Shown: piece by piece, positions 43,178-64,000 of the stretch
Layout of the letters: the number at the start of each line of letters is the position of its first letter
Position numbering within the stretch: the first letter of the stretch is position 1
DNA from: an uncultured bacterium
GTDB lineage: Bacteria > Oederibacteriota > JAAXVQ01
Direction: 5' to 3'
Assembly: GCA_964604705.1 (NCBI GenBank)
Contig: CAZSAP010000014.1
Location: 1 to 64,000 of the forward strand
Length of the DNA: 64,000 nt
The notes under the pieces: model-generated
Told to the model about the DNA's origin: nothing
Seen by the model: only the letters and a program-made list of their open reading frames with translations
Database searches by the model: none
Translations under genes and position numbers: made by a program

Positions 43178-43223
43178 GGACATGGATAAAGTCCCCCTCT
43201 TTGGCAAAGAGGGGCTAGGGGAG
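43178..43223. repeat. Left copy of the direct repeat GGACATGG...GAGGGGCTAGGGGAG flanking a 3.65-kb cassette
   Basis: GGACATGG(43178-43185)...GAGGGGCTAGGGGAG(43209-43223). The partner at 46854-46879 is GGACATGGTGGGAGGGGCTAGGGGAG. The left copy carries an extra internal hairpin CCCCCTCTTTGGCAAAGAGGGG. Confidence 0.55.
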
Positions 43224-43325
43224 TTAGCCAACAAAACACCTACCCTAAAAACCCGACAATCATACCGCAGGAAGCAGCGCGACGGTAGGATTTTTAAAAA
43301 TTATATTTATCCATTTATCCCGCGC

Positions 43326-43350
43326 GTAGGGGCGTATTGCATACGCCCCA
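43326..43350. repeat. Palindromic element copy (GTAGGGGCGTATTGCATACGCCCCAC)
   Basis: First island copy, 100 bp upstream of coiled-coil gene 1. The flanking sequence CCATTTATCC...CGCGATCTTTTTCCTAAGCACGCGTCT is repeated at 44795-44900. Confidence 0.7.
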
Positions 43351-43451
43351 CAATTATTGATCCTTTTCCCCGCGATCTTTTTCCTAAGCACGCGTCTCAA
43401 CAAACCGGTTGCAAAAGTCATAAAAAAGTTTACACTTAGCGGAGATAAGTT

Positions 43452-43775
43452 ATGAACGAAGAAGGGTCTATAACCATGTCCGAATTTAAAACCGTTATCG
43501 AAAGCTTTCAGTCTGACATAAAAAAGCTCGCTGAAGGCATGCAGCATGGCTTCGAAGTGGTAAACGCCGAGCTCAGCTATGTTAAAGCAGACATCCGTGA
43601 GCTCAAAGAAAAAACAGATCGCGTTGAAGTAAAAATTGACTCTCACACCGAACAAATCGCCCGTTTGCAGGAAGATGTTACGGACATTAAAAACTCTTTA
43701 AAACTAAAAGCGGACCGCGAAGAGTTCGCCAAACTCGAAATGCGCGTGACCAAGCTCGAAAACAAAGTCGCGTAA
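43452..43775 (+). CDS. Coiled-coil protein of unknown function (paralog 1)
   Basis: 107 aa, heptad-rich, no TM. Coding sequence and ~150 bp of 5' leader are duplicated at 44960-45304. Confidence 0.6.
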   Translation: MNEEGSITMSEFKTVIESFQSDIKKLAEGMQHGFEVVNAELSYVKADIRELKEKTDRVEVKIDSHTEQIARLQEDVTDIKNSLKLKADREEFAKLEMRVTKLENKVA

Positions 43776-43887
43776 ACTGTCCCAAACTGCCGGCACTTAT
43801 TAAAAAACCACAAAGGGCCGAATGAATTCATAAGCATCTAAATCCGTTTCAGGATTAAGCCCAGGCCCGTCAAAGGAATGTTTCGCT

Positions 43888-44745
43888 ATGCTTCAGCCGT
43901 GTGTGTGTTGCCAGCAGCAGGTTGCTCCCCTTGAGCAACAATCCATTGTCTGCAACCTCCGTCAGTTCCGTCAAAAGCAATTCCTCGTCTGGCGCTGTCC
44001 TCTATGCCGCAGCCTGCATCGCCAAGAGCCCATGGACTTGGCGCCCTATTATCGTGACTACCCTATCCATAAACTCGAACTGGATTTCTGGCTGCGCTTA
44101 CTCAAGGGCAATCTGGTAAGCCATCTCCGCCATGCCGGGCTTACACCCTCTGTTGCATTTCTTGACTTCGGCTGCGGCGCCGGTCTGCTCCTGCGCCTTT
44201 TGGCTGAAAAGGGCTTTACCCACCTGACCGGTTACGACCTTTACCACCCCGAATACAACCACCCTGAGGTGTTGCGCAACCGCTATGATTTTATTTTAGC
44301 CGAAGATGTCCTAGAACATGTGGATGACCCGCAAGCCTTGCTCAAGCACTGGCATGCGTTGCTCAACCCAGGCGGACGAATCCTTATCACCACGGTCAAT
44401 GCCGCGGGCATTGATCTGAACAAACCGGAAGCGTATCTCCACAGCCTGCATCAACCTTTCCACCCGCATATGTTTTCCCCGCAGGCCTTGGAGGACATGG
44501 CCAGGCGTGAATCGTTTCAGGTGCTCCGTTACTATAAGCGCTTCTACTACGACACGCTGATACCTACCGTGAACTATTCTTTTATGCTGGAATACCTTAA
44601 GGCCCAGGGCAATACGTTTGCCGTGGGTCCTGAGGTGGTTGATCTAAAGCTCTTCGTAACCAACCCTGCCTTGTTCTTCTATGCCTTCTTTGGCTATTTT
44701 TTCCCCAATCACGGACTCATGATGATGTTGCTGGAGAAAAAATAG
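43888..44745 (+). CDS. Class I SAM-dependent methyltransferase with N-terminal Cys4 zinc ribbon
   Basis: CVCCQQ...CPLC zinc ribbon. Motif I LDFGCGAG, motif II DFILAEDVLEHVDDP, motif III LNPGGRILITT. Confidence 0.75.
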   Translation: MLQPCVCCQQQVAPLEQQSIVCNLRQFRQKQFLVWRCPLCRSLHRQEPMDLAPYYRDYPIHKLELDFWLRLLKGNLVSHLRHAGLTPSVAFLDFGCGAGLLLRLLAEKGFTHLTGYDLYHPEYNHPEVLRNRYDFILAEDVLEHVDDPQALLKHWHALLNPGGRILITTVNAAGIDLNKPEAYLHSLHQPFHPHMFSPQALEDMARRESFQVLRYYKRFYYDTLIPTVNYSFMLEYLKAQGNTFAVGPEVVDLKLFVTNPALFFYAFFGYFFPNHGLMMMLLEKK

Positions 44746-44798
44746 ATCGCCTGTGTGCTTAACCGCACATGCATCGGCGTGTACCCATTTATCATTCC

Positions 44799-63055: not shown

Positions 63056-63181
63056 ACTGTGATTCTCCTTGTGGAGTATTGAATTTTCGATTGTGTCTGA
63101 TTTAAAAATCACCGTACCGATCGCGAAAGGCAAAAGGTGCCAGCCACCAAAACCCCATCCCCGAACACTAGCACTTACTGC

Positions 63182-63517
63182 CTAATAATCCACGGTTACT
63201 TGAAAGCAGTCATTGGCGTCCGTGGCCGTGGCCGCCGTGAGCTTGGCCAGCATTATGGAGTGCACCCCCTGCTCCAGTTGAACGGGAATCTTTTTCAGCG
63301 GGAGCGTTACATGCACATTGGCCTGATTGCTAAAAAAGCGGATCTCGCCGATCGGTTTCTCGTCTAAGAGAATTTGGATGCCAATGGCTTTGTTGGCCTC
63401 GCTGGAAAACGCTGTGGCAGAAACCATCAACGTGCACGGTTCGTTGCCCTCGGCCGGAAACTGCGCCAGTGCGGGCAAAGGTCCTTGGGTGTCGAGTACT
63501 ATCTGGTCACGGTTCAT
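63182..63517 (-). CDS. Small beta-rich protein of unknown function (paralog 2)
   Basis: 111 aa. GAGGAG RBS. About 45% identical to 63560-63898. Shared core PCTL.VSAT...GEIRFF.N.SNVHV.LP...DAND.FQ...Y. Lies in an operon with the 940-aa protein. Confidence 0.6.
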   Translation of the reverse strand: MNRDQIVLDTQGPLPALAQFPAEGNEPCTLMVSATAFSSEANKAIGIQILLDEKPIGEIRFFSNQANVHVTLPLKKIPVQLEQGVHSIMLAKLTAATATDANDCFQVTVDY

Positions 63518-63559
63518 GCGTTTTTCTCCTCGGGAAGTAGTGGTGCCGGCATCGGCCGG

Positions 63560-63898
63560 CTAGTACTCAATGACTGCCTGAAAATAGTCGTTGGCGTCGG
63601 TAACGGTGGGTGGGGTCAGGGGCACCAGCTGCAAGGTGTGCGCGCCTATGTCGAGCGTAAGCGTGAAGAGGCGCACCGGCAGGCTCACATGCACGTTGGA
63701 CAAATTGCAAAAGAAGCGGATCTCCCCCACTTTCTTCCCGTCCACAACAACGGCCAAACCCACCGTGGCATTGGCCGAACTGGAGTACACGGTCGCCGAA
63801 ACCGACAACGTGCACGGGGCATTGCTCTCGGCTTGAAACGTCTTGGGTGTGTTTGGTACAGGACCGTACGTGTCGATCACAATCTGGTCTAGGGACAT
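63560..63898 (-). CDS. Small beta-rich protein of unknown function (paralog 1)
   Basis: 112 aa. GAGGAG RBS. First gene of a three-gene minus-strand operon. Confidence 0.6.
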   Translation of the reverse strand: MSLDQIVIDTYGPVPNTPKTFQAESNAPCTLSVSATVYSSSANATVGLAVVVDGKKVGEIRFFCNLSNVHVSLPVRLFTLTLDIGAHTLQLVPLTPPTVTDANDYFQAVIEY

Positions 63899-63973
63899 GA
63901 AAGACTCCTCTCGGAAATGAATGATCTCCCCAAGGGCAAGGTGCCCGAGGGGCGCAACTGAAACGGGGACAGC

Positions 63974-63993
63974 GTCAACTTTATAAAGTTAGC
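63974..63993 (-). promoter_or_regulatory. Conserved palindromic promoter/operator-like motif (copy 4)
   Basis: GTCAACTTTATAAAGTTAGC, 76 bp upstream of the first operon gene. Confidence 0.5.
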
Positions 63994-64000
63994 ATCATCG

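Follow-up and report, generated by a model that had tools for sequence, protein, structure and literature searches.

The DNA analyzed here is a 64,000-nt stretch (the window: positions 1 to 64,000 of contig CAZSAP010000014.1) from an uncultured bacterium of the Oederibacteriota, and our subject is its last 21 kb, which lies on the 5′ side of mfd, the gene encoding the transcription-repair coupling factor. Our analysis suggests that this DNA, which starts at 43.1 kb and runs past 64 kb, is probably a lineage-specific mosaic variable region, built stepwise in an insertion hotspot at the mfd 5′ flank of a Goldiibacteriota/FCPU426-like bacterium. The palindrome that recurs throughout it is, as judged from its sequence, a GTAG-tagged repetitive extragenic palindromic (REP) hairpin, GTAGGGGCGTAT-NNN-ATACGCCCC, of a widespread kind. 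The features discussed below are collected in Table 1.

Seven mfd loci from relatives were compared with the window, with all window proteins used as tblastn queries: L003, from a Candidatus Goldiibacteriota metagenome-assembled genome, and L004-L008 and L026, which include FCPU426-type assembled genomes. The mfd protein is 91% identical to that of L003 and 60-71% identical to those of the other six. On the 3′ side of mfd, gene order between 28.5 and 43.1 kb, including a SurA-like gene, is collinear in L003-L008, reaching 28.5 kb in L003. On the 5′ side, mfd is the last syntenic gene, and not one of the seven relatives has any of the window genes at 43.2-64 kb upstream of mfd. The border falls at the mfd start codon, where DNA similarity between the window and L003 ends. 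Because synteny halts on the 5′ side and DNA similarity stops at the start codon, the synteny break is real and sharp. The initial annotation had proposed an accessory island beginning right after mfd, to be compared with related genomes, and this comparison agrees with it: the region is absent beside mfd in all seven available relatives, while the other side of the gene is collinear.

The DNA upstream of mfd differs from one relative to the next. In four of them (L004, L006, L007 and L026) it encodes a PD40-repeat protein (~930-1010 aa) and a PorV-like outer-membrane protein, which is likely the ancestral arrangement. In L005 (FCPU426), a type I restriction R subunit and its neighbors are found at this place, with a GC content of 0.41 vs 0.47. 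L003 carries a nucleotidyltransferase toxin-antitoxin-like pair (NTP_transf_8) and a Y1 transposase fragment, whose best match is the NCBIfam family of REP-associated tyrosine transposases (RAYT) NF047646 (E 1e-15, below the curated cut-off). A 60-nt stretch of the mfd 5′ end is duplicated in the same locus (1320-1379 vs 2692-2751, 91.7% identical, E 3e-18), with the duplicate lying 1.3 kb upstream of the true mfd start, and the two copies bracket a 1.3-kb insert with the NTP_transf_8 pair. Upstream of the duplicate, L003:1-2760 shows a short tandem repeat and the RAYT-like Y1 fragment, and then the contig ends. Since the cargo upstream of mfd differs across three lineages, the mfd 5′ flank appears to be a recurrent insertion site in this clade.

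Base composition also changes in the region, in more than one step. Per kilobase, GC is 0.62-0.63 in mfd (40-43 kb). It falls to 0.48-0.58 (43-47 kb) and 0.34-0.48 (47-60 kb), then recovers to 0.51-0.59 (60-64 kb); elsewhere the window, at 0.48-0.70, is itself heterogeneous. Left of the border, the GC content of third codon positions (GC3) ranges from 0.54 to 0.84 among genes, compared with 0.27-0.59 at 47.7-60.0 kb. At both ends of the region it is host-like, with 0.64-0.77 at 43.9-47.2 kb (methyltransferase, radical SAM and receiver genes) and 0.64-0.75 at 60.2-63.9 kb (a gene for a 966-aa protein and two small neighbors). With three GC3 blocks, the region is a mosaic and not a single foreign block. 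The abrupt compositional change noted earlier at ~43.2 kb is thus confirmed insofar as the profile is not uniform and GC drops at 47-60 kb, but the change is not a single step and the ends are host-like. The relatives at mfd span GC 0.41-0.65, and the C-terminal sorting domain of the DUF285 surface protein, of the type IX secretion system (T9SS), shares 38-44% identity with its counterparts in proteins encoded left of mfd, which resemble one another to the same degree. Both facts make a donor within the same clade plausible, and by these sequence comparisons the low-GC block probably came from lower-GC members of it. The donor of the lowest-GC gene was not traced because its product, the TPR/YfiO-like protein (47679-48647), is an orphan, without any homologue besides itself among 5.8 billion proteins.

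One could argue that the region is native to the lineage and was lost or rearranged in the relatives, its low GC coming from secreted, fast-evolving genes. The host-like GC3 at both ends, the match of the T9SS sorting domains to proteins encoded left of mfd and the heterogeneity of the window in any case are in line with this, and a native origin is possible for the two host-composition blocks. For the region as a whole it is quite unlikely, as PD40/PorV beside mfd in four distant relatives speaks for that arrangement being ancestral, the ORF6N genes described below are of mobile-element type, and one full orphan gene has a GC of 0.32.

Alternatively, a single integrative element may account for the whole region, be it a genomic island or an integrative and conjugative element now decayed, inserted at the mfd 5′ end with its integrase and a second att site beyond 64000. 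The mfd 5′ duplicate of L003 is a signature of site-specific integration at this place, and the array runs past the window end, the source contig (74,879 nt) being ~10.9 kb longer than the window. Like genomic islands and hotspots next to conserved genes, the region combines a synteny break, lineage-varying cargo, a partly atypical composition and, in a relative, an att-like duplication. Unlike them, it has no integrase, tRNA or flanking direct repeat in 21 kb, and its composition is mosaic, in three distinct blocks. The mfd 5′ end occurs only once in the 64-kb window, so that the 21-kb region has no copy of it. Gene families were searched with Pfam, NCBIfam, PADLOC and PHROGs. In agreement with the initial annotation, the 64-kb window yielded no tRNA, and none of its called genes showed an integrase or transposase domain (Pfam). 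Pfam and PHROGs gave no phage structural, packaging, conjugation or replication genes either, the PHROGs matches being to anti-repressors and repressors only. Finally, a homologue of the radical SAM enzyme is chromosomal elsewhere in an FCPU426 genome. A single element therefore seems unlikely, and assembly in several steps would better fit the mosaic.

The palindrome was searched as GGCGTAT-NNN-ATACGCC. Allowing up to 2 mismatches, 13 matches were obtained, all within 43331-60136 (0.19 expected), and these represent 11 full copies and two degenerate second hairpins. Each copy has a stem of 9-12 bp and a loop of 3 nt, is 21-27 nt long and folds at -14 to -20 kcal/mol; in context it reads GTAGGGGCGTAT-NNN-ATACGCCCC(TAC), with both loop orientations present. 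The GTAG/CTAC tag flanks 10 of the 11 copies, being degenerate in copy 6. The copies fill ten intergenic gaps, and copy 1 is the only one between divergent genes. All are singletons, with no inverted doublets (the REPIN or bacterial interspersed mosaic element type) among the copies in the window. ORF6N genes b and c, as well as an ORF6N remnant, end in a stop codon that is the TAG of the tag. Left of the border, 3.7 kb of intergenic DNA holds no copy of this REP variant, vs 11 copies in 3.1 kb of intergenic DNA of the region. Another copy, the twelfth, lies 37-67 nt beyond the window end (sequence L001 adds 67 nt), preceded by the start of a further upstream module inside the window, so the region does continue past 64000 as had been proposed.

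REPs are non-autonomous, and a RAYT of the HUH/Y1 type encoded elsewhere is thought to mobilize them through recognition of the single-stranded hairpin. The exact 20-base motif GTAGGGGCGTAT-NNN-ATACGCCC is present in at least 120 metagenome stretches and 44 viral contigs (164 loci, L034-L197) with GC from 0.31 to 0.70 and unrelated flanks. Head-to-head doublets occur in 44 of the 164 motif loci listed, with a median spacer of 51 nt, and four of these loci carry RAYT-like genes matching NF047646 (E ~1e-15, below the curated cut-off). Three of these RAYT-like genes (L042:673-1297, L081:1996-2614 and L118:2120-2816) have REP-derived hairpins translated in frame, following the HUH motif (…MPNHIHGIIII…GVCDTPL…). 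Hairpins that start with GTAGGGGC but have other stems are found in L005 and, outside the region, between convergent genes at 15873-15900 of the window (GTAG...CTAC, stem GGTAGGGGCGCATGTTCTGCCACCCCTACC). In L005 they lie at 6973-7000 and 16495-16522, L005:1-10000 being the part of that locus upstream of mfd.

These findings change how the palindrome is to be seen. The initial annotation had counted eleven copies restricted to the region and had spoken of private repeat families. The eleven copies were recovered and this stem variant, and only this one, is confined to 43.2-64 kb within the window; since the same motif occurs in at least 164 unrelated loci, the family is not private but a cosmopolitan GTAG REP, and a related GTAG hairpin lies outside the region in the window itself. 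Nor is its setting as unusual as had been thought: in GTAG REPs the TAG can serve as a stop codon, and the repeats lie between co-oriented open reading frames and are sometimes clustered (Di Nocera 2013, PMC3733652). The copies described here share with the GTAG REPs and their RAYTs (Nunvar 2010, PMC2817692; PMC3733652) a GC-rich GTAG hairpin of 21-27 nt, an intergenic location between co-oriented or convergent genes and the TAG stop, and the same motif elsewhere makes inverted doublets and occurs with RAYT-like genes. They differ in that the window has no RAYT, the copies are singletons limited to a non-syntenic region and moved mostly with their flanks, and an identical stem is shared across contigs of GC 0.31-0.70. 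The GTAG-23 REPs of Thermomicrobium roseum, likewise a clustered GTAG family, are grouped in blocks at few loci (PMC3733652), whereas in the 64-kb window REP clustering is interleaved with genes over 17-21 kb. Rfam had no family for any repeat of the region, neither the repeat strings nor their encoded peptides were found in the literature searched, and that literature made no mention of a REP variant so widespread.

How the copies multiplied within the region is suggested by what surrounds them. In the self-comparison of the window, every REP copy has at least one flank in common with another copy, and direct repeats of 60-600 nt are found in this region only, as the initial annotation had stated for its direct repeats. 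Six copies carry an ~100-nt element that we call the A module, which on the minus strand consists of the GTAG hairpin, AAAAAAGCAGTGGGTT..GGTTGGCGGATAAGG and AACTTTACAAAGTTGAC. In four A-module copies, 29-76 nt separate the end of the conserved palindrome from the start of a gene, which differs from copy to copy. Positions 55162-55229 (copy 7) are 94% identical to 49889-49956 (copy 5), and 59418-59523 is 78% identical to 63959-64064. Other shared flanks are an ORF6N leader (twice), the ORF6N 3′ end (three times) and two further pairs. The minus strand of the low-GC block is made of serial units of A module, cargo, ORF6N gene or remnant, and REP, and homology switches at the hairpin edges. Independent Logan contigs of the same sample (run ERR3839026) support junctions across the REPs, and one of these, L280, supports the junctions of the DUF3592 gene across two REPs. 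Because the copies mostly share flanks and are not independent, enrichment P-values overstate the case. The simplest reading of the repeat structure is that the REP copies spread mostly by segmental duplication and recombination at short repeats. It is also possible that REP-flanked segments, such as ORF6N gene c between inverted REPs, were mobilized in trans by a RAYT.

The motif AACTTTACAAAGTTGAC occurs four times on the minus strand, at 49843, 55111, 59450 and 63990, and nowhere else in the window. This bears out the four-copy motif described earlier as region-specific, but not its label as a promoter/operator. In sigma-70 promoter and terminator scans neither the A module nor the REP was called, and total calls were at the level of shuffled sequence; that label is accordingly unproven, and to give the A module a regulatory role would be conjecture. 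A search of 2.2 Mb of other loci turned up neither the A module nor the ORF6N leader, nor a 58-nt element. This last one, present as an inverted pair, brackets the minus-strand low-GC array from the gene of the 334-aa secreted protein (hyp334) to ORF6N gene c (~11.5 kb). From its arrangement, the pair could mark an invertible or once-mobile segment.

All three full-length ORF6N proteins match the PHROG anti-repressor family phrog_4792 and, along its entire length, the PADLOC candidate system PDC-S05. A fourth ORF6N is present as a 3′ remnant only (58833-58880; 55939-55999 vs 58820-58880, 88.5%). Relatives with 45-68% identity are found in 84 viral contigs, 5 phage records and 25 plasmids, and on a Bacteroides ovatus plasmid such a relative adjoins integrases and ArdA. 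By this distribution, the ORF6N genes are of mobile-element type, as in phages, plasmids and defence islands. ORF6N was considered as a partner of the REP hairpin and rejected, as the 164 motif loci listed contain no ORF6N gene. Similarly, no GTAG hairpin was found 3′ of ORF6N genes in viral contigs.

The recurrence of one hairpin between genes that are all co-oriented from 48.8 to 64 kb brings to mind an integron-like array (a cluster of attC sites lacking an integron integrase), one sense of the sedentary cassette array that the initial annotation had suggested; the palindromes would then be attC-type sites. attC sites are imperfect palindromes of 57-141 nt bounded by R'' (RYYYAAC) and R' (GTTRRRY) boxes. 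The hairpins described here lack this size and the R/L boxes and carry a GTAG tag instead, and a scan of both strands for R''/R' attC-like pairs found none. There is no IntI in the window, several units hold more than one gene, and the same hairpin, single or in doublets, is scattered over at least 164 unrelated contigs. This interpretation was therefore dropped as extremely unlikely.

One may still imagine a cassette system of another kind, an analogue of the integron in which units of A module, cargo, ORF6N gene and REP, delimited by hairpins, are moved by an HUH transposase. On the minus strand the unit structure does recur, units change from one homology to another right at the hairpin edges, and inverted REPs flank ORF6N gene c just as they usually flank RAYT genes. 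In the 164 other loci listed, no ORF6N gene lies near the REP; elsewhere, ORF6N genes have no REP at their 3′ end and REPs have no cargo homologue next to them; and outside the window the A module was absent from the 2.2 Mb searched. As ordinary duplication and recombination account for the pattern, such a system is very unlikely. Its more specific form, in which the ~100-nt A module, cargo gene(s), ORF6N gene and GTAG REP make a cassette captured, duplicated and reshuffled by a REP-associated HUH transposase at the mfd hotspot, we hold to be more of a speculation still; if true, it would be a single-strand-transposition analogue of the integron.

The stepwise construction of a variable region at the mfd 5′ flank, which we favor, would have brought in a host-composition block with the methyltransferase, the radical SAM enzyme and regulators, the low-GC block with its secreted and surface proteins, macro-domain protein, M48 protease, DUF3592 protein and anti-repressor-like ORF6N genes, and a second host-composition block with the toxin-like protein. 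Once in place, the REP would have multiplied mainly through local segmental duplication and recombination, spreading jointly with an ORF6N gene whose stop codon it supplies and with the ~100-nt A module upstream, and so would have come to occupy nearly all intergenic gaps. Several points weigh against this proposal. An integrase may sit in the remaining 10.9 kb of the source contig, and the host-composition blocks could be native genes relocated by rearrangement. The sole close relative is L003, whose contig stops 2.7 kb upstream of mfd, and with only one such relative the accessory status of the region within the genus rests on little data. The window has no RAYT gene. The REP may abound genome-wide and simply be absent from the compact left 43 kb. 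Lastly, GTAG REPs are reported to be confined to core regions in Stenotrophomonas maltophilia and Pseudomonas syringae (PMC3733652), and the REPs described here sit in the non-syntenic part, the opposite of that restriction.

Table 1. Coordinates of mfd and of the genes and repeats found upstream of it (window positions; cc107, 107-aa coiled-coil protein; CDS, coding sequence)
Feature	Position	Strand	Match or remark
mfd (transcription-repair coupling factor)	39643..43113	-	Pfam UvrB_inter, CarD_TRCF_RID, DEAD, Helicase_C, TRCF
REP copy 1 (GTAGGGGCGTATTGCATACGCCCC)	43326..43349		between divergent mfd and cc107 gene
Duplicated module 1	43334..43775	+	REP 3′ half, leader and cc107 (CDS 43452-43775)
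SAM-dependent methyltransferase, 285 aa	43888..44745	+	Methyltransf_23 E 1.5e-25; GC3 0.64
REP copy 2	44799..44822		one stem mismatch
Duplicated module 2	44843..45304	+	REP remnant, leader and 114-aa coiled-coil paralogue (CDS 44960-45304)
REP copy 3	45348..45374		fully symmetric (GTAG...CTAC), -20 kcal/mol
Radical SAM enzyme, 343 aa	45568..46599	+	Radical_SAM E 2.7e-12; GC3 0.77
REP copy 4	46639..46662		right flank common with copy 3 (45351-45436 vs 46639-46717, 84%)
Stand-alone response-regulator receiver protein	46871..47245	-	Response_reg E 3.4e-21
XRE-type HTH regulator	47367..47576	+	HTH_3 E 4e-8; also PHROG transcriptional repressor families
Secreted TPR/YfiO-like protein	47679..48647	+	YfiO E 2e-9; GC 0.32, window minimum
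58-nt element	48710..48767		inverted partner of 60160-60217, 81% identity over 58 nt
334-aa secreted protein (hyp334)	48794..49798	-	no family match
A module and REP copy 5	49813..49911	-	REP 49888-49911; degenerate second hairpin 49921-49937
REP copy 6	50136..50156		without intact GTAG tag; followed by partial A module
500-aa secreted protein	50224..51726	-	T9SS-type C-terminal sorting domain, Por_Secre_tail E 1e-6
Macro-domain protein, 206 aa	51855..52475	-	Macro E 3e-15
DUF285 (BspA-type) repeat surface protein	52714..55059	-	DUF285 E 3e-190; T9SS sorting domain, Por_Secre_tail
A module and REP copy 7	55086..55184	-	REP 55161-55184; degenerate second hairpin 55194-55210
ORF6N gene a	55317..55838	-	ORF6N E 6e-28
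REP copy 8	55925..55951		TAG is stop of ORF6N gene b; precedes gene a leader
ORF6N gene b	55948..56469	-	ORF6N E 3e-33; PADLOC PDC-S05 E 1.7e-56; PHROG anti-repressor E 1.8e-28
Membrane M48 (HtpX-like) metalloprotease, 639 aa	56656..58575	-	Peptidase_M48 E 5.5e-14
Degenerate A module, REP copy 9 and ORF6N 3′ remnant	58780..58880	-	REP 58809-58832; remnant 58833-58880
DUF3592 membrane protein	58907..59395	-	DUF3592 E 4.6e-8
A module and REP copy 10	59418..59525	-	REP 59502-59525; TAG is stop of ORF6N gene c
ORF6N gene c	59522..60028	-	ORF6N E 6e-36; between inverted REP copies 10 and 11
REP copy 11	60115..60141		symmetric
63-nt hairpin element	60160..60223		partner of 48710-48767; 19-nt arms, 95% complementary
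Orphan protein, 940-966 aa	60233..63133	-	toxin-like architecture; GC3 0.64
Two paralogues, 111 and 112 aa	63182..63898	-	63182-63517 and 63560-63898, 51% identical; predicted jelly-roll beta-sandwiches
Start of further A module	63959..64000	-	its REP 37-67 nt past window end

The gene calls of the initial annotation were recovered by Pfam, including Methyltransf_23, Radical_SAM, Response_reg, HTH_3, YfiO/TPR, Macro and DUF285, as well as two Por_Secre_tail domains, three ORF6N genes, Peptidase_M48 and DUF3592. The two duplicated modules at the left end are 78.6% identical over 463 nt. For the 107-aa protein of module 1, Pfam yields nothing but coiled-coil noise; the family of the two encoded proteins comprises 26 representatives at E<1e-10, and the lengths (107, 114, 121, 128 and 135 aa) rise in one-heptad steps. 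One homologue of these coiled-coil proteins (in L288) is encoded beside an AAA_15/DUF2813 (OLD/Gabija-like) ATPase. Homologues of the radical SAM enzyme are 45-54% identical to it, and the FCPU426 copy found elsewhere on the chromosome lies beside SAM methyltransferases. The methyltransferase next to a radical SAM homologue in L286 was considered as an orthologue of the window methyltransferase and rejected as not orthologous. The 334-aa secreted protein had no match in Pfam, NCBIfam, PADLOC, PHROGs or the PDB.

PADLOC detected no complete known defence system; its matches were to the candidate PDC-S05 (E 1.7e-56) and, weakly, to mad2 and pVip. Three full-length PDC-S05-type ORF6N proteins with macro, methyltransferase and protease neighbors are reminiscent of defence islands. 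Unlike these, the region has no validated defence system detected in it, PDC-S05 being a candidate only.

The 966-aa protein (P0001, 940 aa in the protein database) was modeled from 35 homologues (predicted local distance difference test, pLDDT, 79; predicted template-modeling score, pTM, 0.69). The N-terminal part is modeled as a glycine-rich beta-solenoid and the C-terminal part as a beta-sandwich, and long helical hairpins are predicted as well. All of the 14 best Foldseek matches of the model in the PDB (E 4e-12 to 4e-7, probability 1.0) are to TcA subunits of Tc toxin complexes, yet the template-modeling score (TM) is just 0.16-0.20. Homologues are sporadic and have differing gene neighborhoods. 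The predicted fold makes a toxin-like role a lead and not a result. The 111- and 112-aa proteins encoded upstream of this gene have predicted structures with weak C1q/TNF-like and carbohydrate-binding-module-like matches.

Some features of the rest of the window were also recorded. At 15955-21629 two proteins with T9SS sorting domains (939 and 940 aa) are encoded by tandem paralogous genes that share ~80% identity overall but 99% in their last 300 nt, a pattern suggestive of gene conversion. In a minus-strand open reading frame that runs off the window start, a 147-nt (49-codon) unit is repeated in tandem at least 6.5 times (positions 1-1035), and 3088-4721 holds adjacent paralogous genes (282 and 268 aa) whose DNA is 72-80% identical. 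The imuB-like (IMS) and dnaE2-like error-prone polymerase genes at 8875-13112 have a GC of 0.64-0.70, well above the rest of the window, and this may be another acquired block.

Taken together, the locus looks like an ordinary insertion hotspot colonized by known repeat types and not like a new kind of element. It documents such a hotspot, at the mfd 5′ end, in a barely studied candidate phylum. The striking palindrome belongs to the GTAG REP class as one of its stem variants, and the region is otherwise explained by known processes. REP families are mostly regarded as lineage-specific and vertically inherited. Here one REP stem is common to contigs of very different GC, viral ones included, and its spread may merit separate study.

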